Under the pieces are notes generated by a model. That model did no database searches. It was not told where the DNA came from and worked only from the letters and a program-made list of their open reading frames with translations. A stretch of 39,918 nt of DNA from a virus. A program made the position numbers and the translations under genes. Positions within the stretch are counted from its first letter, which is position 1, and each line of letters starts with the position of its first letter. Shown piece by piece: positions 9,974 through 29,857 of the stretch. The DNA lies in the UHGV virus genome UHGV-0076060, one strand, 5' to 3'.

Positions 9974-9974
9974 T

Positions 9975-9986
9975 GTGACATGTCAC
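9975..9986. repeat. 12-bp perfect palindrome GTGACATGTCAC (copy 1 of 3)
   Basis: Exact 12-mer also at 27581..27592 and 29846..29857; overlaps stop codon of the minus-strand gene. Confidence 0.7.
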
Positions 9987-10339
9987 GTCCCTTTTCTGAA
10001 TGATAGCCATTCGAAAAATGATGACATTCCACCGCAGACAATAGCAAAGATGATCCCACCAAAGAAGAGAAGGCCAGCCTGCCACCACTCCCACCGCCAT
10101 ACATCCACAGCGCCAACCATACCAACAATCGCTCCAACAAATGGAATATAGCTCACGATGAAAGCAATGGGGGCTGCAATTATCCAGTGCAATCCCCACC
10201 ATGATTCAAGCCCAGCCATAATTGCTGCCAACTGAAAAAGACCAACGACGATATAAACAATGAATCCTATAGCTTGCATGTAGTCACCTAATTTACCCAG
10301 TAAAAATAAGAGGCCTCCCCTCAATAAGGCTTGCAACAA
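9983..10339 (-). CDS. small polytopic membrane protein (98-118 aa)
   Basis: Hydrophobic throughout (3-4 TM); TTG start at 10339 with AGGGAG RBS or ATG at 10279; Trp-rich (WRWEWWQ). Confidence 0.55.
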   Translation of the reverse strand: MLQALLRGGLLFLLGKLGDYMQAIGFIVYIVVGLFQLAAIMAGLESWWGLHWIIAAPIAFIVSYIPFVGAIVGMVGAVDVWRWEWWQAGLLFFGGIIFAIVCGGMSSFFEWLSFRKGT

Positions 10340-10475
10340 GAACTACTCCCTGCACAACAAAGATGAACCAGCAAATAGCTTGAGTCTGAGGGTTAAGAAA
10401 ATATTTGTAGCGGTCAATAAATAACAATCCACCAGAAATTATCACACTCAAAATAATTAAAAACACAACACTTCC

Positions 10476-12950
10476 TTATTGCGGAGTGACATCCTGTGGT
10501 CGCCACCAGTATGTCTGGTTAAACTCTTTCTTCGAACGTTGCTCCATTTTACGCAAATAACCTGGTGAAAAATACTCCTGCATCTGGTTAAAGATCATGT
10601 GATCGAGAGCCGCCTTTAAGTACCAGAGATTCGCACCTGGCATCAGACCTTTCCCCAGCTTAACCAGATCACCACCAGTCTGCTCATTCTTCCCTTCCAC
10701 AGCATTTAACGGTATGCCCTGAGCAATCTTCACTACGTCATCAACCAGACCAGCTACCGGGCCAAGCATCGACGCCAGCGCGCCGCTTCCGTACCTAGTG
10801 TGATCTGACAATAAAAAGTCACCGTAAAGGCCAAGACCACCACCTTTCAGTAGAGCACCAAGCCAAAATTTAGCAGCATCTTCTCCTGTCATCTCGCGAG
10901 GATTACGACCAGACGCAAGGTCGTTAAGTTGCTGCGACAAAGCGCCAAGAATGGTCGTACTGGCAATAAACGTCGCAATATATGCCGCACGCCCACCAGC
11001 CGACGGCATACCCATAGCGCGTGACCAGTGACGCATAACCACCGAGATAGGGAACGATTTAAACAGGAAAACACTTCTCGTTAATTCACCTTTCCATGTT
11101 CCACGCTGAATACCAGAACCGGTTATCAGTTGCTCACGTGCACCCGGTGTAATAACAGCCATATCAACTTCTTCAGTTACGGCACCGAGCAGTTTACGCA
11201 TTGCCTCAAATTTCACGCGTTCAGGCTCACCAAGATGTTTAACTGCTGAATCAGGGATACGCATAATGCTTTCCGGTGTCAGCATCGTATTATTACCGTT
11301 CCCCCAGTCCTCCTGTTGCGCCAGCTTCCATACGCTCCAGTCTGTGTCAGTAATCCCTTTGCTTTTCAGGATACGAAAATCAGAGTCATCGAGGCTACGA
11401 AGGTCTGGTGTCCGTGACACTACTTCTCCCAGGCTTCCCATCATGGTTACGCCATAGGCGCGCTTGTGCGCATCTGACCATGCTGTAAGCCCACTGGCAC
11501 GCATTACCGCCGTTGCCGCCCAACGAGACACAGACGGCCCCATATTATCCATCGCCCAGCGGTTAACACTGCCAAGTAGAGATTCCATCGCCAGACCAGC
11601 GCGGCGCGCCCGCGCAAGCTCAGTACGGTTCGTTGGGTCCATAGCTTCAAGCTGGTTGCGGAATAACTGGTTCATTGGAAGGTTGGTAACCTTCGCAGAC
11701 AGATACATGGTTCCAAGATCAGAGAACGATGACAGCAACGCGGATCCGAGTCTGCTGGCAACCAGCCAGTTGCGGATATTGTCAGACCATCGCGCGATGT
11801 GCGGATTCGCTACAGGCTGTGTCTTTCCGGAAATAAAGTTGTACAGATTCTCTGTGTTGTTCGCCAGCCGCTCGACTTTACCGGTTTTACTCGGGTTAGC
11901 TGTTGCCGTTTCTGCCTTCACCTGATCAAGAAGAGAGCGGAAAACATGATCGGGGTTTGGGCCATATGTTTCCACCAGTGCAATATCTTTACTGATACCT
12001 TCCAGGTGACCGACCATGATTTCCCATAGAGAGCGATCGCCATAAAGTTGCTGATATTGCAGATAGGAATCTGCATCTTTGAAATGTATCTGTCGTGATG
12101 CATTACCACGGTTAGCACGTGCTCCGGAAATTCGCATTCCGGTGTCAGTAAGCTTATTCAGCCCACCAGTAGCGATCGTGTTATAAGCCTCTCCAAGAAA
12201 TGCAGACAACTCGGCATCGTTCATCAGTTGTCCATCGGCTCGGGTATAATATTTGCGATCCAGCTTACCTATAACATCGCTAACCCATTTATCTTTTGAT
12301 ACCGCCCCAACCTTTTCCATAGAATGATGTTGAGGGATCCCCCAGTTTTCGAGATAGCCAATGTCCCCACCAGCATCATTAAACCGGCGGCGAAGTAGAT
12401 CTGTCACTTCTCTCCACGCCTTAGCACCTTTTCTTGCTTTAGCATTGCCAGTATTTTGCCCTCGCATTTCATATACCAGGTCACGCACGCCCGCTTCATC
12501 TTCAAACAGGCCAAAAAAGCGAGGATCAACTGCTTCAAATGCCTCCTGCAATTGACTCAATGCATAATCACGGGTGGCTTTTGTTCTGGATTCAACAGAG
12601 AGGAAATTCGATTTACCGTCTGCATTAAAAGCAATAGTACGGTTAAGAGCGCCAAGTTTCCCATCAGCCCCTTGATAGCTATTGATAAATTTATCCAATC
12701 TCTGACGTGCGGCTATAGTGAGGGCCACACGACGTTTCTTTAATGCCGCTTCTCGCTGTAATTCTTCAGATGCCAATTGTGCTGCACGATATAGCCGCTC
12801 TGATTCGGAAAGTTGTCTCCACGACATCGGGTCATCACGAGCAATGGAGCGCATATTTCGATAAATGCGGTCTTCAATGTTCTGTATTTCTCGCGCCGTT
12901 AACGTGCGCTGCGCCGCCTGCTGGACCGCTTGTATACATTCCTGTCTCAT
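10476..12950 (-). CDS. internal virion / DNA-ejection protein (824 aa)
   Basis: Large ORF in the run of internal-core genes between tail-tube genes and tailspike; position equivalent to T7 gp15/gp16. Confidence 0.6.
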   Translation of the reverse strand: MRQECIQAVQQAAQRTLTAREIQNIEDRIYRNMRSIARDDPMSWRQLSESERLYRAAQLASEELQREAALKKRRVALTIAARQRLDKFINSYQGADGKLGALNRTIAFNADGKSNFLSVESRTKATRDYALSQLQEAFEAVDPRFFGLFEDEAGVRDLVYEMRGQNTGNAKARKGAKAWREVTDLLRRRFNDAGGDIGYLENWGIPQHHSMEKVGAVSKDKWVSDVIGKLDRKYYTRADGQLMNDAELSAFLGEAYNTIATGGLNKLTDTGMRISGARANRGNASRQIHFKDADSYLQYQQLYGDRSLWEIMVGHLEGISKDIALVETYGPNPDHVFRSLLDQVKAETATANPSKTGKVERLANNTENLYNFISGKTQPVANPHIARWSDNIRNWLVASRLGSALLSSFSDLGTMYLSAKVTNLPMNQLFRNQLEAMDPTNRTELARARRAGLAMESLLGSVNRWAMDNMGPSVSRWAATAVMRASGLTAWSDAHKRAYGVTMMGSLGEVVSRTPDLRSLDDSDFRILKSKGITDTDWSVWKLAQQEDWGNGNNTMLTPESIMRIPDSAVKHLGEPERVKFEAMRKLLGAVTEEVDMAVITPGAREQLITGSGIQRGTWKGELTRSVFLFKSFPISVVMRHWSRAMGMPSAGGRAAYIATFIASTTILGALSQQLNDLASGRNPREMTGEDAAKFWLGALLKGGGLGLYGDFLLSDHTRYGSGALASMLGPVAGLVDDVVKIAQGIPLNAVEGKNEQTGGDLVKLGKGLMPGANLWYLKAALDHMIFNQMQEYFSPGYLRKMEQRSKKEFNQTYWWRPQDVTPQ

Positions 12951-12955
12951 TTAAT

Positions 12956-14758
12956 TTAACCTCTCAAGAAACACGCCACAGCGACATCAAACAGGCTGGA
13001 ATCCTGTATTGCCTGCTCACTTTCCCTGTTCGCTTCATCCAGTACTTCACGCGCGCTGCGCGATTGTGGATTACCATCATCATCCAGCACGGTGATTATC
13101 ATGTCAGGTGATTCAAGCAGCGAGTCTTCAGCTATGCGCAGATCAATATCTCCTGCCTGATCCGCCATCATTTTTTGTTCTGCCTGTTGCAATATTTTAT
13201 CAGGCTCAAAAGGAGCTACTTCGTCTGGCGTCCTGACCTCTGCTGTTTTATAGAATGAAACAGCCTGAGCATTAAGTTCACTTTCTGCCTGCTGTCTCCG
13301 AGCCAGTTCTGCTCGAGCTTCAAAAAACTGACCTCCAGGCTCGTGCGGTGCCAACGCGTTACGGGAAAATTCCAGGCGTTCTTGTGCCTGCCGGATTCGT
13401 TGATCAATATCGCGAAGTCTGGCCTGTTTATCTGATCGAGCACGAGATAAAGCCTTACCGCTACCGGTTGGCTCTTCTGCAAGAATTTGTGCGCGCTGTT
13501 CAGTGAGATTTTCAATAATTCGTTGGCTATTAGCGATTTCAGACTGGTAAACCTGTCTATCGCCACGCGGCAAAAGCTGCGCGGCCTGTTCTTCAAGCAA
13601 CCGATTTTCTATAGCGCGCGCCGTTACTCCATCATCTACAGATGACAGAGCCTCATTAACTGCCTGAGACAGCAGACTCTTGCGCCCAGGAATTTCACTG
13701 AAAGATGCAGACTCAACAATGCTGGCAACGTCTACAGGTCTCCCCTGGCTAACATCAGACATGGCTTTTCGCAGAGCCTGAATGTGAGAATTGCGCGAAA
13801 GCACGTTGATCGGGACGCCGGGAGCAATATCAATTTCAGCATGATGAGCGGCATTCGCCGCCAGTGCAGCATCGACATCAACTGGTGAAAAATTTGGTGC
13901 GCTTGTAGACTCGCCGCGAGAGTTAATAAATCTGCCGACACCACCAAACGCCACCCCAAGAACAGCATCAATAGCAATTGCCTGTCGATCCAACACATCA
14001 TACTGGTTAGCCATTTCGCTATAGCCACCATCACGAAGCGTTTTTGCAGTAAGCCCACGCTGTGCCATACCGAACGCAATATTTGTACCTGCGGCATAGG
14101 CAATATCTGGCGTTGCACGTACTGCTGTTGCTGCGGCGCGTCGCACTGAACTTTCACCCGTCCGCGCAAGCTGAGCCGCCACACCTTCCGCCAGCGCACC
14201 ACCAGCACGTAACCCGAGGCTCATAGGGATCAGTGTTCCGGCACCAGCAGTAATACCCTGCACTAATCCCGCTTCCTGCGCCGTCCTGAAATCAACACCC
14301 TGTGCTGTCAGCCGTTCAAACTCAGAAAAACCCTGTAGCGAAGTTACCGCCGCAGCACCTCCGACCGGACCACCGAGCGTTGTACCGATAACAGCCTGCC
14401 CGCCCATATCGAACAACCCATAAAGAACCTGCCCGGCGGTTCCGGTTGTCGCGGCATCAGGCGTCAGCCGCTTAACCTGCTGCTCTGCTAGTTTTCTCTG
14501 CTCGGCAATGTATGAAACTGAAGTGTCATTGAGCGAGGTGTTTTCGTTAACAAACTGAGCAATCGGGGATACGATTTTATCCATCCCTGCCCAGAGCAAC
14601 TGATCTGGCTTTGCCACCAGCCCGGAGTACAAACCAGACAATGCCGCTCCTACAGCATTGTCGAAAAAACCAACATCGCTGTTAAAGCCAGCTGGATTTG
14701 ATGCTGCTTCGTCAAGCTGCTGATTCTGGTTTACTGGATTAAGGCCAAAGTAACTCAT
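12956..14758 (-). CDS. internal virion / ejection protein (600 aa), Gly/Ala-rich
   Basis: Large ORF, Gly/Ala-rich central segment typical of internal core proteins; operon context. Confidence 0.55.
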   Translation of the reverse strand: MSYFGLNPVNQNQQLDEAASNPAGFNSDVGFFDNAVGAALSGLYSGLVAKPDQLLWAGMDKIVSPIAQFVNENTSLNDTSVSYIAEQRKLAEQQVKRLTPDAATTGTAGQVLYGLFDMGGQAVIGTTLGGPVGGAAAVTSLQGFSEFERLTAQGVDFRTAQEAGLVQGITAGAGTLIPMSLGLRAGGALAEGVAAQLARTGESSVRRAAATAVRATPDIAYAAGTNIAFGMAQRGLTAKTLRDGGYSEMANQYDVLDRQAIAIDAVLGVAFGGVGRFINSRGESTSAPNFSPVDVDAALAANAAHHAEIDIAPGVPINVLSRNSHIQALRKAMSDVSQGRPVDVASIVESASFSEIPGRKSLLSQAVNEALSSVDDGVTARAIENRLLEEQAAQLLPRGDRQVYQSEIANSQRIIENLTEQRAQILAEEPTGSGKALSRARSDKQARLRDIDQRIRQAQERLEFSRNALAPHEPGGQFFEARAELARRQQAESELNAQAVSFYKTAEVRTPDEVAPFEPDKILQQAEQKMMADQAGDIDLRIAEDSLLESPDMIITVLDDDGNPQSRSAREVLDEANRESEQAIQDSSLFDVAVACFLRG

Positions 14759-18280: not shown

Positions 18281-20748
18281 AATCCCCCAACAGTAAGGCG
18301 AGGAATAACGGCAAGAACAGACAGCGGCAACGGGTCAAGCTGACGGATTCTTACACGTCCGTTTTTGCCCCAGTTACTGTCCAGTTTCACTTCTACTTTT
18401 CCGGTAGCGTCATCAACAGGATCATCGTAGAACTCGAATTCACGCTGTGGATATTCGTACCATTTACCGCCTGGCGTAGTCGCCCAGATGCCGCGGCTGG
18501 CATTCACAACCAGAGTAACGGACGGGATCACCTGTTTTTTGTCCAGCAGCGTTTCCTGTCCGTTAATGTTGATATCCAGTGTTTCGAATTCAGCAGTTAT
18601 TGGCAGGCCGATGTGCACTACAGCCCCCGGTGATTCCAGCGTGACGGCACCTCCGGAAACCACTTTCTGTGGTTCCACGTTCGCATCAGAGAGAATGTTT
18701 ACGGTCTGGCCTTCAAGATGAGACAGGCCTCCAAATGTCCGGCGCGCCATCTGCCAGTTCATGGTGGCCGCATTCCTGAGGGATGGCGGGACGTTCCTGT
18801 TGGCACGAACCACTACAGCGGTATTGCTGGTTACAGAAATAATGTCGCAACGTAATTCTTTTGACACTTCATCGCCAGTATCAGGATCAGTTCCGGCATA
18901 AGGGAACTGTAGTTGCGCGCCGACATCACTACTGGTGAAGTACGCACCACCAGAAACACTGATTGTATATTCCGCGCGATAATCCCATTCGCCAGAACCA
19001 CCAGTGATGGTCATCGTTCTGTCAGACGTATTTCTTCCATCATAGCTAAGGCCAGAATCAACAAAGAAAGCATCTTCATCGCTGGTAAATAAACGGCTGG
19101 ACAGTCTCTCGATGTATCTCACTGTTTGCCCGTTAACGGTTCTGTTAACGACGAAATACACCGCATCTTCATTGCCTTCGCTGATACTGCATGTGCTTTC
19201 ATATTTTCCGGTACTGGATTGTGGTGCCCATGCAAAAACCTGCTGATCACGCAAGTAGGTCATCACCAGTAATTTACCATCATCACGAATGCAGAAGGCG
19301 CTGGAGTAAGGGACAATCGAGAAGCACCAGTCAACAATGCTGTGCTTCTGAAAAAGATGATTGGCAAGGATAGTAAGGTCGTTCCCCTGATATCCGTCAA
19401 CATCGAATGAGTAGGCCAGATCACGTACAACACTGCCTTTCTCCTGGACGAACAGAGCAATATTCGCCACGGCAATTGGTGGGACATTGCTCGAGCCATT
19501 TGATCCCTGAGAGCTGAATGCAAATGATGATGGGGTTAACACTTTGTTCTGGTCGCCGGTGATGACGTACTCACCTCCAGAAGTCAGTGCCACCAGCGAA
19601 CCGACATCAATCAGGTGGCGGATCTCATTAACCTGACGCCCGGCATAGGTGTAGATAATTCTGTCGTCATCCTGCGTAGGATTGCTTTTGCCAAAATCCT
19701 TATAATCCCCGGTACGGCTGGCCCAGATAGTCTGAGGGAACGCAGTCGATGCGGCGAAGTAAAGACGTTGTTGATAATAAACAACAGTGCCAGGATAACC
19801 ATTAACACTGTTCCAGGCATATTTAGCCCATTTATAGCTGGCATTATCCTCGCCAACTACCTGCGAAGGGATATAGGAAATCACCTCGGCAGTTGCAGTA
19901 GTTCCATTTGCAGCAGTGATACGGGCAATGCCAAAACCACTGTGCAGATATTCCCACTCAATGCCAGTATCATCATCACCGGATCCGCCCCAACCATCCC
20001 ATGATGTGCCTTCTGTATGCGAAGGGCGCAAAGTACCTGTTTTGCCTGCTGTAACGGCGCGATAGTAGTTACTGTCTGCACGGCGAATATCGCCAATCGA
20101 CGTACTCTTACTGGTTTCCCATACCGGCACTGAATCCACTGCAGGCTGTTCCAGATAGAACAATTTGCCTACCTGCTCCGCGCCAAAAATAGAGGCGCTT
20201 GCCGTTAACGTAATTGTCCCGGTGCTGGCGCTGGCATAAACCGTCACTGACTCGTCAATATTGATATCTTCAAATGGCCCGTTCTTCGTTACCACATCAA
20301 CCAGTTGCCAGTTGTCATGCGCATAGCGGCGCAACTCTTTCGGCGGGTATGCCGGGTGAACCAGCGTAAGCACGTCGGCGCTTTGCGTGAATTTAATTCG
20401 GAACAGATCGGCTTCAGTATATGGCGTGGCAATTTCATAAATAACATTGCTGCTGTTCAGCACCAACGCACCATCTTTGATAACGCGCATGTACTGGTGT
20501 CCGAACTCCAGAGCATAGGTCTGAACCGTCGAGAACTGGAACGGGATCAGGCGGCATTTCCGATTTGGGTATTTGGCGGCACCGACAAAACGCGTACCAG
20601 GTCGATTCTCAACGCCGCCATACTGCCGCACGATAAAGTTATCGCACTTGCGCAATGCCACCTGGTACTTCGCCATGTCGATACGCCCGTATAATGACGG
20701 GCCAATTTCACCACCAGCGAAGCTGGGTTGTATCCAACTGATAGCCAT
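18277..20748 (-). CDS. tail tube/nozzle protein, T7 gp12-like (823 aa)
   Basis: Size and position directly after the gp11-like gene; beta-rich composition; overlapping coupling with neighbours. Confidence 0.55.
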   Translation of the reverse strand: MAISWIQPSFAGGEIGPSLYGRIDMAKYQVALRKCDNFIVRQYGGVENRPGTRFVGAAKYPNRKCRLIPFQFSTVQTYALEFGHQYMRVIKDGALVLNSSNVIYEIATPYTEADLFRIKFTQSADVLTLVHPAYPPKELRRYAHDNWQLVDVVTKNGPFEDINIDESVTVYASASTGTITLTASASIFGAEQVGKLFYLEQPAVDSVPVWETSKSTSIGDIRRADSNYYRAVTAGKTGTLRPSHTEGTSWDGWGGSGDDDTGIEWEYLHSGFGIARITAANGTTATAEVISYIPSQVVGEDNASYKWAKYAWNSVNGYPGTVVYYQQRLYFAASTAFPQTIWASRTGDYKDFGKSNPTQDDDRIIYTYAGRQVNEIRHLIDVGSLVALTSGGEYVITGDQNKVLTPSSFAFSSQGSNGSSNVPPIAVANIALFVQEKGSVVRDLAYSFDVDGYQGNDLTILANHLFQKHSIVDWCFSIVPYSSAFCIRDDGKLLVMTYLRDQQVFAWAPQSSTGKYESTCSISEGNEDAVYFVVNRTVNGQTVRYIERLSSRLFTSDEDAFFVDSGLSYDGRNTSDRTMTITGGSGEWDYRAEYTISVSGGAYFTSSDVGAQLQFPYAGTDPDTGDEVSKELRCDIISVTSNTAVVVRANRNVPPSLRNAATMNWQMARRTFGGLSHLEGQTVNILSDANVEPQKVVSGGAVTLESPGAVVHIGLPITAEFETLDININGQETLLDKKQVIPSVTLVVNASRGIWATTPGGKWYEYPQREFEFYDDPVDDATGKVEVKLDSNWGKNGRVRIRQLDPLPLSVLAVIPRLTVGGF

Positions 20749-21682: not shown

Positions 21683-21726
21683 TCCTGCAATAAAGGGGCC
21701 GAAGCCCCTTGTCTGATCCGCGAGGC

Positions 21727-22071: not shown

Positions 22072-22072
22072 C

Positions 22073-22510: not shown

Positions 22511-22561
22511 CTTCTTTCTCCATTAGTGGGCCTGTTGCGGCCCACAGGTTAATAACAGGCG

Positions 22562-23554
22562 TTACACCACGCGGGCTTCTGTTTCCAGAAGTGCGTCAGT
22601 TTCGCGAATCGGCACACCACGAAGTTCTGTCCACCATTCGCCTTCTGTCTCTTTCACGCTGATCGCCAGAGAACTCTTCTCCAGAGATTGCAGGTCAAGC
22701 ACTTCGTTAATGGTTCTGTTCATGTAGAAAATAGGACGTCCCATCCCACGATTTGGGATTCGATGAAGGGCACGAATCATCAGTTTTGCGATATTCGCAG
22801 CAGTAGAAGGAGCGTCAAGATTGCTGACATCGATGTTTGCAATGCGAACAACATAGCGCCAGTCACGCAATGTCAGCCCGTTGTCCCACTTATAATGGGT
22901 ACGATAACCTTCGTACTTGCCGCCATTAGCATCTTCCAGTGTCACCTGGCCTTTATCTTCCATCTGGATGCCAGCCTTCTGCCCTTTCGGGAAGATGCCA
23001 TGCACGGTGTTTTCGCCCCACACCACTAACCAGATTGAAGTGTTATCTGTACCCGTGCCACCAGCATCAATGATGTTCTGAGCATTACCCGCAGACAGGC
23101 TGGAATAGCGGGAGGACAGTCCCATAAACTGCTGAGGGTTAACGCTGGAATCACCGTAAAACAGCGTCTGCGCCATCGCCTGATTCATCGCTTCAATAAA
23201 TGCTCGGTCTTCAGACAGGCGGAATTCGGCAGTATTACCGTTCAGATCAGCCAGAGACTTATCGACTTCAGCATAGGTTTCCAGCATGCCAATGGAATCA
23301 GTGACCTGCACCGTTGTTGATTTGCTCGGTTGTACGCCATAGTTCAGCAAACGCCAGGTAGCGGAAGGCAAACCAGAACGAATGGTGGTTCGGTGTCCGG
23401 TAGGAAGGTTCCCTTCGACAAAAGGCATATCCTGAAGGATTGGGTTGGTTTGACTGAGAAGCTCGATAATCTTATCGACTTTCCCGTTTGGATCGACGCG
23501 CTTACCCCAGTCAGCCAGCGTTAGCGCAGTTAAGCCTTTAACAGCCATTGTCAT
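22562..23554 (-). CDS. major capsid protein (330 aa)
   Basis: Size, position after scaffold gene, strong expression context; composition consistent with an HK97-fold coat protein. Confidence 0.75.
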   Translation of the reverse strand: MTMAVKGLTALTLADWGKRVDPNGKVDKIIELLSQTNPILQDMPFVEGNLPTGHRTTIRSGLPSATWRLLNYGVQPSKSTTVQVTDSIGMLETYAEVDKSLADLNGNTAEFRLSEDRAFIEAMNQAMAQTLFYGDSSVNPQQFMGLSSRYSSLSAGNAQNIIDAGGTGTDNTSIWLVVWGENTVHGIFPKGQKAGIQMEDKGQVTLEDANGGKYEGYRTHYKWDNGLTLRDWRYVVRIANIDVSNLDAPSTAANIAKLMIRALHRIPNRGMGRPIFYMNRTINEVLDLQSLEKSSLAISVKETEGEWWTELRGVPIRETDALLETEARVV

Positions 23555-23562
23555 TTCCTCTC

Positions 23563-24264
23563 TTATTTGCCATAGAGCACTTCGGCCGCACTACGCTGGC
23601 CTTCATTACCACCGGTGACCATGCCATCTTCAGACATCGCCTTTCCGATTTTCACGAACGTTTTGACCAGATCAGGGTGATTACCCAGCCCGGTGGTGTT
23701 CAGATATTCTTTGAGTTCAGGTGTCCCGAACTGGTCAAGCGCACGCTGTGCGGCGCTAAGGTTAGAAATCAACTTGTCGCCACCGATTTCTTTGTCAGCT
23801 TTTACATCAGCAGCCCACTGCTCGGTTGTTTTCTGCCAGGCTTCTGCCTGGCGCTGCTGCACACCTGCCAGAATCTTCGGATAAGCATCAACCAGCTTTT
23901 GCGCTTGCTCGTTGGTCAGGTTAAGTTCTCGCGCCACCGGCTCGAACTCCTTCAACGCTTCTGTATCCAGCTCTACGCCTTCGGCAGCCTGAAACTCGTA
24001 CTTCTCAGGCGCACCCTGTGGTTTATCGCCGTCCTTTTTTTCATCCTGCTTATCGTTTTCAGGCTTTTTGTCATCAGCAGGTTTATCGCCATCAGCAACA
24101 GGTTGTGGCTTATCACCTTCCTGTTGTGATGGATCACCAACTGGAGCAGGGTTATCACCTGCAGGCGCTGACGGTTCTGACGCAGCCGGAGCTGCTCCAC
24201 CATCGACTTGTTGCTCATTGCAAAGACGGCGATACAGCAAACGCTCAAATAAACTCATGATCAC
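23563..24264 (-). CDS. scaffolding protein (233 aa)
   Basis: Low-complexity Pro/Asp/Lys/Glu-rich N-half and helical C-half, between portal and capsid genes. Confidence 0.7.
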   Translation of the reverse strand: MIMSLFERLLYRRLCNEQQVDGGAAPAASEPSAPAGDNPAPVGDPSQQEGDKPQPVADGDKPADDKKPENDKQDEKKDGDKPQGAPEKYEFQAAEGVELDTEALKEFEPVARELNLTNEQAQKLVDAYPKILAGVQQRQAEAWQKTTEQWAADVKADKEIGGDKLISNLSAAQRALDQFGTPELKEYLNTTGLGNHPDLVKTFVKIGKAMSEDGMVTGGNEGQRSAAEVLYGK

Positions 24265-24557
24265 TCCTGTTCACTGGCCTCTTTGGCCATCTTCAAATAC
24301 TGTTCAGGGCAATGCGCCATAACGCGCTGAAACAGTTCCAGCGCCAGATTGCGTTGCCCCTCATTAAATGCCATTGCCATAGCATCCATCGGAGAGATAG
24401 CGGAAAACACCCGGCCTTTCTCCAGCACCGACCAGACAACGCGACGCCCCTGTTCACTGCTCATGACAAAGCGAATGTCATCAATTTCACGCTGTGCCAT
24501 GTCACGTTGCTTACGGGCGTTTTCTTCTTTCAGTTGATCGTCTTCGTAATCTGTCAT
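24261..24557 (-). CDS. small hypothetical head-module protein (98 aa)
   Basis: ORF coupled between portal and scaffold genes. Confidence 0.45.
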   Translation of the reverse strand: MTDYEDDQLKEENARKQRDMAQREIDDIRFVMSSEQGRRVVWSVLEKGRVFSAISPMDAMAMAFNEGQRNLALELFQRVMAHCPEQYLKMAKEASEQE

Positions 24558-26233
24558 TGTGATTGCCCACCCTGACCACTAACTGCATTCGCCATAGCTG
24601 ACAAAACACTCGGATCCGAAGTTTTAGCTTCGCTTAGCGTCTTGGCACCCTGTGCCGCCGCCATCCCCATCGCCATCATTTGTTGCTGCTGTTGTTGCTG
24701 TGCCCGTTGCTGGCGAGCCTGCTCAACCTGTTCCTGCGGAACAATGACGGTTGGAGACACTCCGGACATATCAGCGAATGCATCGATCGCCTGATCAACG
24801 TTGAGTTTGTCGAGAGCTTCTGGTTTCGCTTGCGCAAGTTGACCAATGAAGTTGACCGTAGACGCCAAACTGGACAGGCCGATAGACTTCTGCGCCTGAG
24901 CCATGACGGAAATGTATTCGACCTTCAGGGGCATACCTTCCATCGCGTCAGGCGGTGGCGGCAGCATGTTTTTACGCACCATCATCGAGAAAGCGCGGTC
25001 AATGAGAGGATTAAGACATTCGTCGTTCAGACGCTCCAGAACCGGCCCCAACATCAGAAGTTTTTCTTCTTTCATTTCGATCACTGCTTCAACAGGCATC
25101 GAGCGGGTATTGATGTTCTGCAACATCATGAACAGATCGACAAAGTAGGCGCTGTTAATGATTTGACGAGTGTCCTGAATGTCTGCTACCAGATCTGCTG
25201 TACTGGGGTTAACCAGATAAGCAGGCCTGAAGCCATCCTGACCAGTAATCTGATCGATATACGTGATGTCACCAGGAAGAAGGGAGGCGCGCTGATTCTT
25301 GAGGGAAGTCGGAGCAACCATCGGCGGATTGGTGGCTTTATCAATCAACTGCGACTTGCGCTTCTGGAGAAGTTGCAATGCCTTAACAGGTCCAAGCGCC
25401 AGCATACCCGGGCATGATGATCCATAAACATCTTCGCCATTAACTTCCCAGCGCGGAGCCATAATTGGAAACTCATCAAATCCGGACTCACGCAACAACT
25501 TGTCGTTATCGCCACCAACCTCGTAATAAACCGATTTGAATGGCTTGTTCTTGCTATCCAGCTTCGATGTATCGCGGTCAATGTTCGGGTAAACCGAATG
25601 CATCACTTCAATCCACTTCTCGTAGGTTCCGCTTTCCCACATGCTTTTTACGGATTCGCTGACGTTATTTAGCCCGAACTCCTGAACAAGCTGACGAACA
25701 GTCATAGAGAACTTGCGAAAACAGGTGTCCACACTGCCACGAGGTGAGTTAGCCAGGTAGTAACTGCCTATCGGGAATGGCATTGTGCGAATGATGTCCT
25801 CGTCATCCTCCAGCACTGCCATTGCACCAGTGCTGTATGTGCCGAGGCTTCCGTATAACTGCGGCAGCGACTGATAGAGATTCGACTTATTGAACATATC
25901 GTTCATGCGGTTCTGCACCGCCTCAAGCCACAACTTAACAGGGCCATAATCCATCATTTCAGGATCTGGCGTAGCCAGGCGAAACCACGGACGCGCGGGG
26001 CTTGTGATGCCTGACATCATGCCGCTGGCGAGAGTGCGCGCCGCCATAGTCCCGGTCGAATCAATAATGCGTGTATTGCGTCGATCGTTACGGTTGACCT
26101 CAGAAGTCAGAAAGCGGGAACCACGCGGGTTGATGTAATCACTCAACTCGCGCCAGTGCGGCTCGAACGACTGACGCTCGCTTTCAAGTTGTGCGAACTG
26201 TTTGTTCAATCGCTCTTTAGTTGTTTCCGCCAT
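24554..26233 (-). CDS. portal protein (559 aa)
   Basis: Size, position upstream of scaffold/capsid, Gln/Ala-rich C-terminal tail. Confidence 0.75.
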   Translation of the reverse strand: MAETTKERLNKQFAQLESERQSFEPHWRELSDYINPRGSRFLTSEVNRNDRRNTRIIDSTGTMAARTLASGMMSGITSPARPWFRLATPDPEMMDYGPVKLWLEAVQNRMNDMFNKSNLYQSLPQLYGSLGTYSTGAMAVLEDDEDIIRTMPFPIGSYYLANSPRGSVDTCFRKFSMTVRQLVQEFGLNNVSESVKSMWESGTYEKWIEVMHSVYPNIDRDTSKLDSKNKPFKSVYYEVGGDNDKLLRESGFDEFPIMAPRWEVNGEDVYGSSCPGMLALGPVKALQLLQKRKSQLIDKATNPPMVAPTSLKNQRASLLPGDITYIDQITGQDGFRPAYLVNPSTADLVADIQDTRQIINSAYFVDLFMMLQNINTRSMPVEAVIEMKEEKLLMLGPVLERLNDECLNPLIDRAFSMMVRKNMLPPPPDAMEGMPLKVEYISVMAQAQKSIGLSSLASTVNFIGQLAQAKPEALDKLNVDQAIDAFADMSGVSPTVIVPQEQVEQARQQRAQQQQQQQMMAMGMAAAQGAKTLSEAKTSDPSVLSAMANAVSGQGGQSQ

Positions 26234-26247
26234 TTCAATGACTCCGG

Positions 26248-26454
26248 TTACTGACCAAGCAGCGTTTTACCGCTGGTATTAGCGGTTGATGTGTCACCCT
26301 GAGAACCGGTAAGCAGCGTAGAACTACGACCAGCAGCAGCGCGACGGCGACGAGTTTCTTCGTCGCGGGCATCAACAACGGCGGCATCCTGCTCCTGTGG
26401 TGCTGCCTGAACTTCTGGTGTTGCAGGCACTGACGGTGAGCTACCCATGCACAT
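26248..26454 (-). CDS. small hypothetical protein (68 aa) upstream of portal
   Basis: RBS GGAG 9 nt before ATG; chosen over the overlapping 26235..26474 frame, which has an Arg/His/Cys/Leu-rich out-of-frame-like composition. Confidence 0.35.
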   Translation of the reverse strand: MCMGSSPSVPATPEVQAAPQEQDAAVVDARDEETRRRRAAAGRSSTLLTGSQGDTSTANTSGKTLLGQ

Positions 26455-26544
26455 ATCAATGACTCCGTACGCAATTAAATTATTACCAATTTAACCACAT
26501 ATGATTTATTTATCGTAGGCAGTTGACATTTAACGCATGAATTA

Positions 26545-26559
26545 TTACCTTTCAGGTAA
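26545..26559. promoter_or_regulatory. ATTACC-N5-GGTAA operator-like palindrome (copy 4), upstream of head genes
   Basis: TTACCtttcaGGTAA, identical 16-mer to copy 1; about 90 bp upstream of the 26454 start; TTGACA hexamer nearby. Confidence 0.5.
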
Positions 26560-26881
26560 GCAAATGGTTCATTCCGGTTATTAACCTGACTGGCTTGTCG
26601 TTAAATTGAACAGGTGGAGTGAGCTTTTATTTTGAGCAGTACGGCGTATGGCACATGCGCCGATAGCGGTCTGGATACGTTTAAGGGGCACCCTCCCTTG
26701 CTCGGGCAAACGAACCAGGTAGCCGGAATGTGCAAGTCGAGCGGTTTTATTCCGCGCACGGGGATTCACCATCCCGGCGATTCGGTGTGACGCCTCGGAA
26801 GAGACGAGGGTACAACGATGAGAGCATTTATGGAGCCGCGACAAAGTGTGGCGCCTTAACAGGCTAAGTGCTCTCAGCGTT

Positions 26882-26958
26882 GTGGCATTAGCTCAGTTGG
26901 ACAGAGCAACCGCCTTCTAAGCGGTTGGTCGCAGGTTCGAATCCTGCATGCCACGCCA
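26882..26958 (+). tRNA. tRNA-Arg (anticodon UCU, reads AGA)
   Basis: Manual cloverleaf: 7-bp acceptor GTGGCAT/ATGCCAC, D-stem GCTC/GAGC, anticodon stem ACCGC/GCGGT with loop CTTCTAA, T-arm GCAGG-TTCGAAT-CCTGC, discriminator G, encoded CCA. Confidence 0.85.
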
Positions 26959-27001
26959 GAATCACGCCTAAGGACCGTGATGCCAGAAGTTCCAGGTGCT
27001 T

Positions 27002-27044
27002 GGCGGTGATGGTTTCCCTTGAAGGACTATCACCGCCCTTTTTA
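27002..27044 (+). terminator. intrinsic terminator downstream of tRNA-Arg
   Basis: GGCGGTGAT...ATCACCGCC hairpin followed by CTTTTTA. Confidence 0.6.
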
Positions 27045-27121
27045 CAGCAGGACGCCATTGCGATGACTTCATGCTGTAAACCAGTACAGCCACGGAAGGC
27101 ATAACTCATTGCTTCCAGTTC

Positions 27122-27146
27122 GCCCGGTTCGCCGGGCATTTTTTTA
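27122..27146 (+). terminator. hairpin plus T-tract immediately upstream of moron RBS
   Basis: GCCCGG-ttcg-CCGGGC then ATTTTTTTA, followed by RBS AAGGTGAG. Confidence 0.5.
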
Positions 27147-27156
27147 AGGTGAGATC

Positions 27157-27576
27157 ATGAAGACAATTGATATGTTGGCTAAGTATCTAAATGAATGGCC
27201 ATTAAAATATTCTCGTATCGTTCAGGCTGAAGACTGCATTTTTTATGGCGTTTTTGCTGGTAATGAAATGCATTACGAAGTAATTCAGAGTGAGGGACTG
27301 GCCGGGTTAACTCTTAGCGAAGACCATGGTACTAGCGTTACGTTCCATGACTGGATAACAGCACAACGTTATGAAATGGAAAAAGGCGATGTGTTTGATA
27401 TTTCTCGATCTGTTTACGCTAAAGCAAAAAGTGATAATGATTACATGAGCGAACACTTATACAACATGAAGTTACAATGCCTGCATGCGGCGCTTATTCA
27501 GAATGGGCACTTCGATAAAACAAGTGCCATCAATATTGCGGAAGCCATCAACGCTGGATTTAATGCCATTAAGTAA
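27157..27576 (+). CDS. moron protein of unknown function (139 aa), AT-rich, antisense to the late operon
   Basis: Good RBS, low GC relative to neighbours, own terminators; no recognisable motifs. Confidence 0.6.
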   Translation: MKTIDMLAKYLNEWPLKYSRIVQAEDCIFYGVFAGNEMHYEVIQSEGLAGLTLSEDHGTSVTFHDWITAQRYEMEKGDVFDISRSVYAKAKSDNDYMSEHLYNMKLQCLHAALIQNGHFDKTSAINIAEAINAGFNAIK

Positions 27577-27580
27577 CACC

Positions 27581-27592
27581 GTGACATGTCAC
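27581..27592. repeat. 12-bp perfect palindrome GTGACATGTCAC (copy 2 of 3)
   Basis: Exact copy; 5 nt after the moron stop codon. Confidence 0.7.
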
Positions 27593-27624
27593 AAACAGCC
27601 AGCCGATGAGCTGGCTTTGTTTTA
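27591..27624. terminator. bidirectional terminator between moron and large terminase gene
   Basis: AGCCAGC-cgatga-GCTGGCT with extended ACAAACA/TTGTTTT arms. Confidence 0.6.
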
Positions 27625-27666
27625 TCCTCATCAGAGGATATCAACGACATTATCCCCACCAGCGGA

Positions 27667-29142
27667 TTAAGCATAGGGATCGTAATCTGTGATGGCCTTG
27701 CCTTGCTGGTTCTGCTGCCCGGGAATTCGCAGACGCTTCGACACAGGGAACGCAAACGTCAGCAGTAGCGCATCGCCTTTACCCGGCGAACGCCCAAGCC
27801 GCTCCTTGATATCTTCCTTCGGTTCGATAACGATTTTACCGTCCACGCGAACTTTGTACTCTGCCGCCGACAGGTCGTCTGCTGTTTCCTGGTCATCCAG
27901 CATGCCGCCCAGCCTCAGCCATGTCTTGCATGAATTGAACATCTCCCCACGCTTGTTAAGCATCTGCGGGTCAGTTGACGCACCACCGAACGGAACAAGT
28001 TGCCATGTACGTCCCCAGCCATCACCGATTGACTTCAGACCGGTTCCGTAACCGAAGTCGATGAACACCGCGTCAGCCTGATACTGGTCTTCAAAGTCAG
28101 CGATACGCTTCGCCATAATCAGATCGTCAGTGGTCTTGTTGCCAGTCCATAGCACCTTACTATGCAACCCCTGCCGCAGGTATATCACCGCGTCATCAAC
28201 GCCTGAATATGCCGGGTCAACACCGATTATCACCGGAGCATGTGCCACCTGCGCAGCGGTTACCACCCGTTTCATTGCCTCATCAGTAAGACCGGTAGGG
28301 ATAAACTGCAATTCAGATGCATCAGGGAATATGCCGCGCACACGGATTTTAACGAAGTCGCTATCTTCCCCGTAGTCATCAACCCATTTCTGCAACTGCT
28401 GTTTGTTAGTGCCTTCCACCGTCCGGCTGTCAATCTGCGCAGTTTTCCAGCGGTGTTTATATTTGCGGAAACATTCGCGGAAACGCCCGGTGTTACGAGT
28501 AGGGTTTCCGAACGCCACCCAGATAATCTCAGTGTCTTCGTCCGTAAGCGCACCCTCAGCAACTTCCCACACCAGATCCGCAATGTTCGACGCTTCATCG
28601 AATACCACGACGATGCGTTTGCGCTCGTTGTGTAGTCCGGCGAATGCCTCAGTGTTGTGCTCAGACCAGGGGATTGCGTCAGCTCGCCACCGCTTGTCGT
28701 GCCCAGGATCATTGCTGTACATCGCGGTAGCGGTACAGGTAAACCAGTCTTTCGTGATAGCAAGGTTCGACCACTTGATAATTTCCGGCCAGGTCTTCGT
28801 TCGTAGCTGGTTGTCGGTGTTGGCGGTCACCACGACCTTACAATCCTCGCAAGTGGACATGCCCCAGTTGATCAGCATTGAGATGAATGCGGATTTACCA
28901 ATACCGTGACCCGAAGCACGTGCCAGCATAAGCGGCTGATAGCGCGTCTCTGGATTCTGCAGGTGATCACGTATCTCTCGGAACGCATCAGCCTGCCACT
29001 TACGTGGGCCGGTAGCATGTGCCAGTTCAGTCCCCTCTTCCCCCCACGGGAACGCATAGAGGGCATAGCCAAGCGGATCGTGAGTGAACCCTGCAATATC
29101 CTCGATCAACTGCTCTTCAGGAGATAACGCTGTATCTGTCAC
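27667..29142 (-). CDS. terminase large subunit (491 aa)
   Basis: Walker A-like motif (ARASGHGIGKS), size, and position after the small subunit gene with overlapping start/stop. Confidence 0.8.
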   Translation of the reverse strand: MTDTALSPEEQLIEDIAGFTHDPLGYALYAFPWGEEGTELAHATGPRKWQADAFREIRDHLQNPETRYQPLMLARASGHGIGKSAFISMLINWGMSTCEDCKVVVTANTDNQLRTKTWPEIIKWSNLAITKDWFTCTATAMYSNDPGHDKRWRADAIPWSEHNTEAFAGLHNERKRIVVVFDEASNIADLVWEVAEGALTDEDTEIIWVAFGNPTRNTGRFRECFRKYKHRWKTAQIDSRTVEGTNKQQLQKWVDDYGEDSDFVKIRVRGIFPDASELQFIPTGLTDEAMKRVVTAAQVAHAPVIIGVDPAYSGVDDAVIYLRQGLHSKVLWTGNKTTDDLIMAKRIADFEDQYQADAVFIDFGYGTGLKSIGDGWGRTWQLVPFGGASTDPQMLNKRGEMFNSCKTWLRLGGMLDDQETADDLSAAEYKVRVDGKIVIEPKEDIKERLGRSPGKGDALLLTFAFPVSKRLRIPGQQNQQGKAITDYDPYA

Positions 29143-29813
29143 TGATTACCATCCTGACGTTCTTTGAGTCGCTTCCTGGCTGCTGCTATGCGATCAGCAA
29201 TTGTCACATTCACATTAACATCCAGACGTTCTTTGAACGCGTTGACATCAACATGCTTACCAATCAGCTCAAGGTTCTTCACCTTGTCAGGCCATTTAAT
29301 TTTTTTGAGGATTGTCTCTATCGAATCCTCGTTCATGTTCATGATGGTCGATGACAGATCAAAGCCACTAAGCGTAGTGCGCCAGATTTTCGGCCACTCA
29401 CGGATTGGTTTAAGGCTCCCATCGTCGTTGAGGATGTCGATCACGTCCATCTGGTCGATCTCCACCAGGCGCATGAGAACGTAATCAGCACTGACGCGCA
29501 TTCGTTTGTTGCGCTCCTCCATCAACTCGGCAATCCGTTTTTGAATGCGTTCATCGCGCATCATGACGCTGGCTTTAACTGCCGCTGTATTTGGGGAGAA
29601 TCCTGCGTTAATCGCTGCCTGAGTCTGGTTTTCAGGCGTTTTGATGTATGACTGGCAATAAGCCTCCTGCATTGCTGTTAGTGGCTTAAATTGCGTTGAT
29701 TTGCGTTTATAGGTTTTAGGTTCAGCAGGCATCATAACCACCGTGGTAATAGTTACCGTTGTGGTAATAGTACCATGCAAAATAAAGCCGCCATAGTTGG
29801 CGGCAGTATCCAA
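29139..29813 (-). CDS. terminase small subunit (about 200-224 aa)
   Basis: Position upstream of large terminase, basic N-terminal region; the ORF's first in-frame codon is TTG, true start possibly the internal MMPAEP. Confidence 0.6.
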   Translation of the reverse strand: MDTAANYGGFILHGTITTTVTITTVVMMPAEPKTYKRKSTQFKPLTAMQEAYCQSYIKTPENQTQAAINAGFSPNTAAVKASVMMRDERIQKRIAELMEERNKRMRVSADYVLMRLVEIDQMDVIDILNDDGSLKPIREWPKIWRTTLSGFDLSSTIMNMNEDSIETILKKIKWPDKVKNLELIGKHVDVNAFKERLDVNVNVTIADRIAAARKRLKERQDGNQ

Positions 29814-29845
29814 AACCCGTCAAATTCATCATGCATAATCTACTC

Positions 29846-29857
29846 GTGACATGTCAC
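29846..29857. repeat. 12-bp perfect palindrome GTGACATGTCAC (copy 3 of 3)
   Basis: Exact copy overlapping the stop codon of 29854..30195, just upstream of the terminase genes. Confidence 0.7.

Follow-up and report, generated by a model that had tools for sequence, protein, structure and literature searches.

The DNA motif described here resembles matS, the site of the ribbon-helix-helix (RHH) protein MatP. In E. coli, matS is GTGACRNYGTCAC, with half-sites GTGAC/GTCAC (PMC6907758, PMC8669397), and the 13-bp consensus reads GTGAC-RNY-GTCAC (PMC6907758, PMC3603311, PMC8669397). Photorhabdus MatP prefers GTTAC-N3-GTAAC (PMC8669397), and 500 Escherichia and Salmonella prophages lack true matS, which is apparently selected against there (PMC3603311). 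MatP itself, a protein of ~150 residues, combines a four-helix bundle at the N-terminus, an RHH core and a C-terminal coiled-coil, and its sites are chromosomal and belong to Ter. The orders that carry MatP are the Enterobacterales and the Vibrionales.

Other described arrangements share single features with the locus. The RHH repressors (P22 Arc and Mnt, CopG, the TacA/ParD antitoxins, ParG, omega) are small proteins of mobile elements whose genes adjoin a short symmetric site, classically an operator that overlaps the promoter of their own operon. In lambda, the Q/qut arrangement has the regulator gene last in the early operon, and behind it come a DNA site, a terminator and the packaging/late genes. 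The literature on lambdoid phages also holds the concept of boundary or ‘linker’ sequences, conserved short stretches at mosaic joints with variable cargo alongside. Finally, the LacI operator O3, at the 3' end of lacI, reportedly acts as a roadblock that leads to truncated mRNA and tmRNA tagging.

Three copies of a 12-bp palindrome at operon ends

The window, that is, the whole stretch of 39,918 nt analysed, is a Uetakevirus (epsilon15/phiV10-like) prophage. As a preliminary description of this DNA had reported, it contains exact copies of GTGACATGTCAC, a perfect 12-bp palindrome of the form GTGAC-N2-GTCAC, at 9975-9986, 27581-27592 and 29846-29857. Under a mononucleotide model 0.0023 copies are expected (P(≥3) = 2e-9), 100 dinucleotide-preserving shuffles of the window yielded no match, and no other 12-mer reaches three copies in the window. 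One copy with a single mismatch, GTGCCATGTCAC, lies at 24494 within a coding region.

Site A (29846..29857) lies between the early-right operon and terS, and covers the TGA (29856-29854) of a gp49-family gene (phrog_536, 29854..30192, minus strand, 112 residues). An intrinsic terminator hairpin with a T-run (29787..29804, minus), 41 nt downstream of the site, closes the early-right operon; the epsilon15 record annotates the equivalent stem-loop at 39646-39672. The terminase small subunit gene terS follows (29139..29732, minus; Pfam PF03592, E = 1.4e-29), its start taken from the phiv142-3 annotation while the open frame reaches 29813. Directly upstream of the terS start codon, 29734..29768 contains two operators of the prophage-repressor type, ATTACC-N5-GGTAAT, with one mismatch each; because of their position, terS probably has a promoter of its own under repressor control. 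This operator motif has 15 matches in the window against 1 expected and is annotated in the epsilon15 record as repressor binding sites. The 12-mer was rejected as an operator of the epsilon15-like prophage repressor, being a different motif from ATTACC-N5-GGTAAT, whose copies lie at other positions.

Site B (27581..27592) begins 4 nt past the TAA of a variable cargo (moron) gene (phrog_4846, 27157..27576, plus) that converges on the terminase large subunit gene terL (27667..29142, minus). Between the site and the terL end lies a bidirectional terminator hairpin common to both genes (27597..27616, plus, with a good plus-strand T-run), whose counterpart is marked at 2238-2257 in the phiV10 record. 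Site C (9975..9986) covers the TGA (9985-9983, minus) of the last virion-operon gene (phrog_3075, 9983..10339, minus). Directly adjoining it, a terminator hairpin (9957..9974, minus; AGGCCGCTTTCGCGGCCT then TGTTTTT) closes the virion operon and separates it from the convergent antirepressor and accessory genes at 8252..9951; counterparts are annotated at 19505-19522 in phiV10 and 19531-19556 in epsilon15. The layout outlined in the preliminary description is borne out in each respect: the stop codons at A and C are overlapped in one register, B and A bracket the terminase module, and C marks the edge of the accessory island.

Each window site thus lies between the stop codon of a gene and, on that gene's strand, an intrinsic terminator, with gaps to the latter of 0 nt (C), 4 nt (B) and 41 nt (A). 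In 13 genomes, 13 of 31 sites have a terminator-like hairpin within 45 nt, against 18% of random positions. The 12-mer was discarded as part of a terminator stem: in predicted folds it forms a separate weak 4-bp hairpin (-1.2 kcal/mol) apart from the neighbouring GC-rich stem.

The same three junctions (early operon end before terS, terL end, virion operon end) carry the 12-mer in phiV10, epsilon15, SPN1S, Tyrion and Klebsiella relatives, where it is invariant although the flanks have diverged and are largely unalignable. Of 80 close IMG/VR relatives, 76 have an exact site A, as do epsilon15, SPN1S, Tyrion, BUCT711, Kp4865-1 and ST11-OXA245phi3.2; site C is exact in phiV10, phiv142-3, epsilon15, SPN1S, Tyrion, BUCT711 and ST11-OXA245phi3.2. 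Site B is exact in 52 of the 80, with ~12 more carrying one mismatch; it is dispensable, since about a dozen have no copy there and other cargo adjoins terL. The cargo position beside it is filled by at least seven different genes in relatives. At site C, homology to TL-2011b and EC.W1-9 ends at window positions ~9976-9987, and that to PAS61 begins at 9956. Throughout ~3.9 Mb of related phage and prophage DNA, the 12-mer occurs almost only at these homologous places; in this DNA it is no common repeat unrelated to the phage, and the search of equivalent junctions proposed earlier recovers it at all three.

Coupling of the motif to the gp49 family

Beyond the Uetakeviruses, GTGAC-N2-GTCAC accompanies one uncharacterised gene family, gp49/phrog_536, for which a literature search found no characterised member. 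The family comprises 231 clusters at 50% identity from podo-, sipho- and myoviruses of Enterobacterales and Vibrionales, and all hosts of its phages belong to these orders apart from Aeromonas. The stop codon of the family gene lies inside the motif at about 185 loci of three unrelated phage types (85 Uetakevirus-type, 49 N15-type, 49 Yersinia P2-like), whose gp49-family proteins share only 32-41% identity with one another. A Xenorhabdus P2-like prophage has the 12-mer 4 nt past the gp49-family stop, Vibrio and Photobacterium phages with the gene carry 2-3 motif copies per ~17-24 kb locus (~0.02 expected), and an Aeromonas phage carries the variant GTGACCGGACAC just upstream of the ATG of its gp49 homologue. 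No Uetakevirus without gp49 was found, so this group offers no negative control for the coupling of site and gene.

N15-type phages have a further copy inside repA, invariant in 26 unique sequences. Wobble positions vary in 48 of 60 columns outside this copy and in 0 of 4 inside it, a pattern that, on this alignment, is attributable to selection on the DNA itself. The 12-mer is a real motif, under selection and genetically coupled to the gp49 family.

At the sites that recur between phages, the spacing is N2 without exception. The GTGAC/GTCAC arms are invariant across clades, which indicates sequence-specific recognition, and the centre is AT, TG or GC depending on the clade. The centre co-varies with the predicted DNA-reading strand of the gp49-family protein: an xRKLEIVL-type strand accompanies AT (the Xenorhabdus P2-like case included), TTRRDWVL accompanies TG, and INEIRARL accompanies GC, a correspondence that spans about 4-5 independent clades and is partly confounded by joint inheritance of the gene-adjacent site with the gene. 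N15 (TG) and the window phage (AT) differ in centre at all sites and share the host E. coli, which points to a phage-specific reader.

Placement of the sites is not uniform. They are terminator-adjacent in Uetakeviruses and in Xenorhabdus and Photobacterium prophages, whereas in N15 and in Vibrio and Aeromonas phages they are found just upstream of ribosome-binding sites and start codons, in N15 also inside repA; one mode of action for all lineages is therefore not established.

gp49 as the candidate reader

The suggestion in the preliminary description that the copies are sites for a regulator or host factor is supported as far as binding of a protein is meant: invariance, linkage to a predicted RHH gene and co-variation of the centre argue for a protein-binding site, and a reader encoded by the phage is better supported than a host factor. 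In the structural model, the 112-residue gp49 consists of a basic N-terminal helix, an RHH core and, at the C-terminus, a Cys-rich domain, probably a zinc ribbon. Residues R8, K9, Q12 and R13 of the basic helix are invariant across the family. The family profile gives weak PDB matches to YbiI (E = 0.005) and TraR (E = 0.009), which span the C-terminal helix and Cys motif and are marginal at E = 0.005-0.01. The DksA/TraR finger is CxxC-x17-CxxC after a long helix, while the later cysteines of gp49 are spaced differently, and none of 88 family members matches Pfam PF01258 (zf-dskA_traR).

We propose, with a probability of about 0.5, that GTGACATGTCAC is the cognate operator of gp49 (29854-30192) and acts at operon boundaries. 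The protein, product of the gene that closes the early-right operon, would bind as a dimer, its basic N-terminal helices (R8, K9, Q12, R13) reading the GTGAC half-sites and its variable beta-ribbon the central dinucleotide, a layout like that of MatP on matS (alpha4 + beta1) with the half-sites one bp closer. The transcription units that end at these sites are the early-right operon (A), the cargo gene that converges on terL (B) and the virion operon (C). Bound gp49 would probably serve as a boundary element, blocking RNA polymerase or altering termination efficiency, and so insulate neighbouring or convergent transcription units. Because the gp49 stop codon lies inside site A, binding there could also limit gp49 synthesis.

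The predicted fold class and the short symmetric site near the regulator gene, here a palindrome at the gp49-family stop in about 185 loci, recall the RHH repressors. Unlike classical RHH operators, the gp49 site overlaps a stop codon in three lineages and has further copies at other operon ends, and the classical repressors have neither the Cys-rich domain nor the conserved basic N-terminal helix of gp49. RHH regulators do not usually have their operator at the 3' end of their own gene, which counts against the proposal. LacI O3 offers an analogy for this placement: a comparable roadblock at the gp49 gene would strip the stop codon from the transcript and limit synthesis, although the stop overlap is absent in the Vibrio, Aeromonas and Xenorhabdus members.

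The 12-mer equals the matS consensus GTGACATTGTCAC minus one central base, with identical half-sites. It was rejected as a true matS, having N2 spacing in place of the 13-bp RNY centre and not being confined to Ter: all copies in the window and in Uetakevirus genomes are 12-bp N2 sites, with no N3 copy of GTGAC/GTCAC among them, and they lie at phage operon ends. The gene guaA lies outside Ter. It flanks prophage ST11-OXA245phi3.2, and relatives integrate at its 3' end (PMC9782041). gp49 was likewise rejected as a protein of MatP architecture: it has 112 residues and, in the model, one basic helix, an RHH core and a Cys-rich domain in place of the four-helix bundle and coiled-coil, and none of the 150 best of the 231 family clusters contains a protein of MatP length. 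Homology of gp49 and MatP is suggestive, their sequence similarity not being statistically established. It is unlikely, though conceivable, that gp49 is a stripped-down MatP relative in a miniature MatP/matS-like system of the phage's own, with 2-4 sites per genome organising or insulating phage DNA. Such a system might loop DNA between operon boundaries, or exclude SMC complexes (MukBEF, Wadjet-type) and converging polymerases, and would be orthogonal to the host's 13-bp matS, which prophages avoid.

We consider it rather unlikely that gp49 is a lambda Q-like elongation factor, loaded at the 12-mer so that RNA polymerase reads through the neighbouring terminator (from the early operon into terS, for instance). 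The order of last early gene, site, terminator and packaging/late genes does mirror lambda Q-qut-tR', one N15 site lies ~107 nt upstream of an annotated terminator preceding the antirepressor operon, and TraR and YbiI, the weak profile matches, bind the RNA-polymerase secondary channel. However, terS need not depend on read-through given its two upstream repressor-type operators, gene 40 of N15 already encodes a Q-like protein, antisense transcripts would result from read-through at sites B and C, and the TraR match is marginal, with no family member matching zf-dskA_traR. The arrangement also differs from Q/qut in its perfectly palindromic site and the extra copies at operon ends. gp49 lacks sequence or fold similarity to Q; as a candidate Q-family protein it was rejected, with no such match in Pfam, NCBIfam or PDB sequences.

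Binding of the 12-mers by host MatP, as ectopic or decoy matS that might place phage DNA, fend off MukBEF or titrate MatP during replication, appears improbable. It would account for the identical half-sites, one central base short of matS, and for hosts that, Aeromonas excepted, belong to MatP-bearing orders. It does not fit the N2 spacing of every recurring site, never the N3 of matS; loss of one bp from a rigid dimer site usually abolishes binding. Nor does it fit the different centres of N15 (TG) and the window phage (AT) in the one host E. coli, the absence and apparent counter-selection of true matS in the 500 surveyed prophages (PMC3603311), or the retention of GTGACATGTCAC in Xenorhabdus despite the GTTAC-N3-GTAAC preference of the related Photorhabdus MatP.

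A role chiefly as a recombination linker, giving short homology for module exchange between mosaic phages, was another earlier suggestion and seems more doubtful still. Mosaic joints do occur at sites B and C, homology breakpoints coincide with site-plus-terminator cassettes, and RecE/RecT-type recombinases are encoded (phiV10 and phiv142-3 annotations); the lambdoid linkers offer a parallel in a short conserved sequence at module junctions beside variable cargo. Breakpoints are, however, expected at gene ends anyway, because selection removes recombinants with disrupted genes. A linker explains neither the exact 12-bp conservation with strict N2, nor why the motif accompanies a single gene family in unrelated phages (N15-like, P2-like, Vibrio), nor the clade-specific centres and the repA copy kept against synonymous drift. 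The 12-mer differs from lambdoid linkers in bearing the marks of a protein site (palindromy, fixed spacing, co-variation with a protein) and in recurring in unrelated architectures. The joints more plausibly follow from a conserved functional cassette having variable cargo beside it, with any linker activity at most a side effect.

That the element functions at the RNA level, forming a small hairpin or a processing site at transcript 3' ends beside terminators, is very improbable. The window copies do occupy transcribed 3' untranslated positions adjoining terminator hairpins, and a perfect palindrome gives equal RNA from either strand. Yet the hairpin has only four bp, its arms are sequence-invariant in all clades with no compensatory changes, it neither overlaps nor competes with the terminator stems in predicted folds, and no Rfam family matches at the site positions. 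The preliminary description's link to the phage methyltransferase, or a role as target of a restriction-modification system, can practically be dismissed. An adenine methylase is encoded by the phage, and CATG and ACATGT occur within the 12-mer. However, the 12-mer contains no GATC, its centre differs by clade (AT, TG, GC) with fixed outer arms, and CATG (152 copies) and GATC (150) are so abundant in the window that a methylase site of 4-6 bp cannot account for an invariant 12 bp confined to three junctions.

Implications for temperate phage regulation

Temperate phages of the epsilon15/phiV10 group serve as models of serotype conversion and find use in typing and as reporters, and their regulation is poorly understood beyond repressor and antirepressor. 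The uncharacterised gp49 family is now tied to a precise, testable DNA site, and the protein segments that would read the half-sites and the centre are predicted. The published prophage survey for matS used a 13-bp pattern and could not have seen the 12-mer. Should gp49 block polymerase or modulate terminators where operons end, synthetic biology would gain a small insulator part, and the site would exemplify an operator that overlies its own regulator's stop codon. If gp49 is a MatP relative, the finding would bear on the origin of MatP/matS and on how phages use or avoid host chromosome organisers; a miniature matS, if true, would represent a widespread, unrecognised class of phage nucleoid and transcription boundary elements in enterobacterial and Vibrio phages.

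A palindrome at three operon ends of the prophage

The window is a Uetakevirus prophage, one of the epsilon15/phiV10-like podoviruses, with segments that match phiv142-3, HEMP4, phiV10 and PAS61 at 95-99% identity. terS (29139..29732) and terL (27667..29142) head its minus-strand series of packaging and virion genes, which closes with 10476..12950 and 9983..10339. Upstream of terS, the gene 29854..30192 encodes a 112-residue homologue of epsilon15 gp49 and phiV10 p55, hereafter gp49, which belongs to phrog_536, a family whose label 'transcriptional regulator' is annotation only.

The palindrome GTGACATGTCAC, of the form GTGAC-N2-GTCAC, was described in preliminary form as present in three perfect copies, and exact matching confirms this: copies start at 29846 (site A, at the gp49 gene stop), 27581 (site B, beyond the end of a cargo gene) and 9975 (site C, at the end of the virion operon). 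A composition model predicts 0.0023 copies (P(>=3) = 2e-9), none of 100 dinucleotide-preserving shuffles gives any, and no other 12-mer reaches three or more copies in the window. The placement of all copies at gene 3' ends also held, with the minus-strand ORFs 9983..10339 and 29854..30192 having their TGA inside sites C (9975-9986) and A (29846-29857) in identical register, and site B (27581-27592) starting 4 nt beyond the TAA of the plus-strand gene 27157..27576. Read on the strand of the gene ending there, the order at every copy is stop codon, 12-mer and intrinsic terminator. The terminator hairpin follows site C without a gap (9974-9957, minus strand), site B after 4 nt (27597-27616, plus strand, common to the convergent terL) and site A after 41 nt (29804-29787, minus strand). 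Across 13 genomes, a terminator-like hairpin lies within 45 nt at 13 of 31 sites, against a background of 18%, the finder being permissive and the sites phylogenetically related. A one-mismatch copy, GTGCCATGTCAC, occurs at 24494-24505 inside a small gene (24261..24557) just downstream of the portal gene; its equivalent is GTGACATGGCAC in phiV10 and GCGCCATGTCAC in phiv142-3, and it is probably a coding coincidence, though a recurrent one.

Two readings of the 12-mer as a known type of control element were rejected. A sigma-70 promoter with GTGACA as the -35 element was set aside because the match, weak at site A in all Uetakeviruses, is unconserved at sites B and C. The epsilon15 repressor operator is a different motif, annotated in the epsilon15 record as ATTACC-N5-GGTAAT, and the 12-mer therefore represents a second, separate motif system. 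The operator motif has 15 window matches at up to two mismatches, where one is expected, including those at 6753, 7874, 7967, 9012, 26544, 29734, 29752, 33149, 33211, 35114, 35499, 36211 and 36273. Copies are located in the immunity region and upstream of the tailspike gene, the antirepressor gene, the portal operon and terS, so that every lytic operon seems to be under direct repressor control. Two operators (29734-29768) separate the site A terminator from the start of terS, which probably has its own repressor-controlled promoter.

Other elements of the prophage were also identified. Just upstream of an antirepressor-like gene (8252..8947), 8019-8094 and 8119-8204 (plus strand) match the Hfq-binding sRNA isrK and the C4 antisense RNA in Rfam with scores exceeding the gathering cutoff, an arrangement that resembles how antirepressor operons are controlled in the c4-type (P1/P7) and IsrK-type (Gifsy) systems. 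The antirepressor operon of N15 has one GTGAC-N2-GTCAC copy in its upstream intergenic region. A tRNA-Arg (anticodon TCT; 26882-26958, plus strand), also annotated in phiv142-3 and O157 typing phages, lies in the variable stretch separating terL from the portal operon. Positions 1-1877 are missing from most related phage genomes, whose homology begins at 1877, and are present in TL-2011b. This segment, with ORFs 713..1231 and 1247..1786 and, near 1830, a terminator-like hairpin, is probably cargo or DNA flanking the attachment site. The integrase gene falls outside the window, past its right end.

Conservation of the sites among Uetakeviruses

The 12-mer is a selected cis-element, kept genus-wide at three operon ends. 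The junctions marked in the preliminary description are occupied equivalently in related phages: epsilon15 (2142, 19517, 39612), SPN1S (2174, 19662, 38653), Enterobacter phage Tyrion (2702, 20377, 41755), phiv142-3 (7086, 26565, with the variant GTGACACGTCAC at site B) and phiV10 (2262, 19493, with a one-mismatch copy spanning the record ends). The Klebsiella phages BUCT711, Kp4865-1 and ST11-OXA245phi3.2 each carry site A, and not always an exact B or C. An ungapped comparison over ±40 nt shows no change in any of the 12 motif columns, with the sole exception of phiV10 site A, and the non-coding flanks are mostly dissimilar between relatives. Of 80 close IMG/VR relatives, 76 have an exact site A and 52 an exact site B; site B has one mismatch in ~12 more and is missing in ~12, where AT-rich cargo directly abuts terL. 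A search for a Uetakevirus without gp49 yielded none, all those examined having both gene and sites. The phiV10 record ends (GTGA / CATGTTAC) were considered as a physical genome end or pac site and rejected, since the record simply begins just past the last stop codon and its ends thus carry no evidential value.

Several relatives have additional features at or near such sites. In SPN1S (26722) and epsilon15 (26618), the stop codon of the spanin gene Rz falls within a degenerate copy, GTGACATGTCAT or GTGACATGGCAT, near attP; the equivalent segment is missing from the window (~1981). It may be what remains of a fourth site, one that closed the lysis operon. Klebsiella relatives have, immediately after site A, a good sigma-70-type promoter with an overlapping LexA box, TACTGTATATTTAAACAGTA (BUCT711, ~380-430; two further sequences, L284, ~12709-12760, and L285, ~30486-30535). 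The promoter drives a gene inserted before terS, UmuD-like by annotation in ST11-OXA245phi3.2, and the insert looks like an SOS-controlled moron adjoining the 12-mer. Two of these Klebsiella Uetakeviruses also have an extra exact GTGACATGTCAC within virion-operon coding sequence (BUCT711, 26462; L284, 24674), in a homologue of the small phiV10 p16/p17 genes, a copy that the window lacks.

Coupling of the motif to the gp49 gene family in unrelated phages

Beyond the genus, the motif family of the 12-mer shows genetic coupling to gp49-family genes in phages unrelated to one another. Homologues of gp49 are encoded in N15-like siphoviruses (N15 gene 46, phiKO2), Yersinia P2-like myoviruses, Vibrio phages and Aeromonas phages. 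The gene ends in GTGACTGGTCAC in N15 and in GTGACGCGTCAC in Yersinia phage vB_YenM_56.17, with the TGA in the same register as in the window. Over all loci fetched, the stop codon lies within GTGAC-NN-GTCAC at 85 of Uetakevirus type, 49 of N15 type and 49 of Yersinia type, although the proteins of these three types share a mutual identity of only 32-41%. A Xenorhabdus P2-like prophage has the order stop, 4 nt, GTGACATGTCAC, 16 nt, terminator.

N15 contains exactly three motif copies in 46 kb: one where gene 46 stops, immediately ahead of the gene 47 ribosome-binding site, one inside the 5' part of repA, and the intergenic copy near the antirepressor operon, ~107 nt before the terminator annotated there. 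The repA copy is identical in 26 of 26 unique N15-type sequences, and wobble positions vary in 48 of 60 flank columns versus 0 of 4 motif columns; selection is on the DNA itself at the 12-mer. Vibrio K308-type and Photobacterium phages carry two to three copies per ~17-24 kb locus, versus ~0.02 expected, one of them 19-22 nt ahead of the terS start codon and others adjoining terminators. In an Aeromonas phage, the variant GTGACCGGACAC precedes two start codons by ~13 nt, one of them that of the gp49 homologue itself. The N2 spacing is retained at every recurring site. The sequence following the motif is also alike in distant phages, reading GTGACTGGTCAC-ggagggttaaaaATG in N15 (9270-9305) and GTGACCGGACAC-gagaggttaaatgtATG and GTGACCGGACAC-gaagggttaaattATG in the Aeromonas phage (251 and 3032), and the conserved unit may reach into the ribosome-binding site of the next gene.

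gp49 as the candidate reader of the element

The gp49 family is phage-borne and small: in a set of 1.84 billion proteins it accounts for 231 clusters at 50% identity, almost all of 105-130 residues. gp49 has no sequence match at threshold in Pfam, NCBIfam or PDB, and Foldseek searches against PDB and BFVD returned nothing informative. The AF2 model (pLDDT 82) comprises a helix (5-19), an extended segment, helices 30-42 and 52-74, a Cys-rich knuckle and a short helix. Several family members have sub-threshold Pfam ribbon-helix-helix matches, some Vibrio members have a precomputed RepB-RCR_reg match, and the family profile matches TraR and YbiI weakly over the last helix and a CxxCG..LP motif (E = 0.005-0.01); no member matches zf-dskA_traR. 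Similarity at the level of structure is weak.

The centre of the site tracks the predicted DNA-reading strand of the protein, in a sample of few independent clades in which the gene-adjacent site is co-inherited with the gene. The strand xRKLEIVL (also GVTKIELLL and similar) is associated with AT in Uetakeviruses and the Xenorhabdus P2-like prophage, TTRRDWVL with TG in the N15 type, INEIRARL with GC in Yersinia P2-like phages, DIQELRLKV with AC, GC and CC in Vibrio, and DIKTVSVKL with AA, AG and CC in Photobacterium; the Vibrio and Photobacterium protein types therefore tolerate several centres. The centre follows protein type rather than phage backbone or host: N15 and the window phage both infect E. 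coli and have TG and AT, respectively, and P2-like prophages have AT or GC. This favours a phage-encoded reader. The invariant GTGAC arms are paired with a family-invariant basic N-terminal helix (R8, K9, Q12, R13). We estimate a probability of roughly 0.5-0.6 that gp49 binds the 12-mer, its basic helices reading the arms and a beta-ribbon the centre. Bound at operon ends beside terminators, gp49 would control polymerase traffic, whether by roadblock, insulation or modulation of termination, and occupancy of site A would limit gp49 synthesis; this functional proposal is held with less confidence than binding.

The element also resembles matS, the 13-bp site (GTGACRNYGTCAC; consensus GTGACATTGTCAC) of MatP, which organises the E. 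coli Ter macrodomain; the phage 12-mer is the matS consensus minus one central base. No 13-bp matS turned up in a survey of 500 Escherichia and Salmonella prophages, from which avoidance was inferred (PMC3603311); its 13-bp pattern would miss the N2 form. Only two isolated 13-bp N3 copies, GTGACACCGTCAC and GTGACGCCGTCAC, were seen here, both matS-consensus matches (Vibrio phage K308, 6769; sequence L194, 12938), and both phages also have a gp49-family gene. MatP is itself a ribbon-helix-helix protein whose helix alpha4 and strand beta1 enter the major groove (PMC8669397), and its element order of basic helix, strand, helix, helix is also that of gp49. Because hhalign pairs gp49 3-77 with MatP 69-140 at only P = 0.013 and 3% probability, using a MatP alignment whose sequences are all >=87% identical, homology between the two is a lead, not a result. 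Literature searches found nothing relevant on a phage MatP-like protein or matS-like site, or on how epsilon15 and phiV10 are regulated, and searching full texts for the 12-mer returned no paper.

Among the alternatives to binding by gp49, Q-like antitermination, in which the adjacent terminators would be overridden, ranks highest and binding by host MatP second. A recombination linker comes third. Mosaic joints do fall at site-plus-terminator cassettes: at site B, at least seven different cargo gene ends join the same '(T)AACACC + 12-mer + terminator', and at site C the homology of TL-2011b and EC.W1-9 ends at ~9976-9987 and that of PAS61 begins at 9956. An element acting as RNA is less probable still, and a methylase target is the least probable of all.

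Binding of the 12-mer by gp49 remains the preferred reading. The protein-site pair is portable between phages and its use may vary, as sites in other lineages lie upstream of ribosome-binding sites and inside repA.
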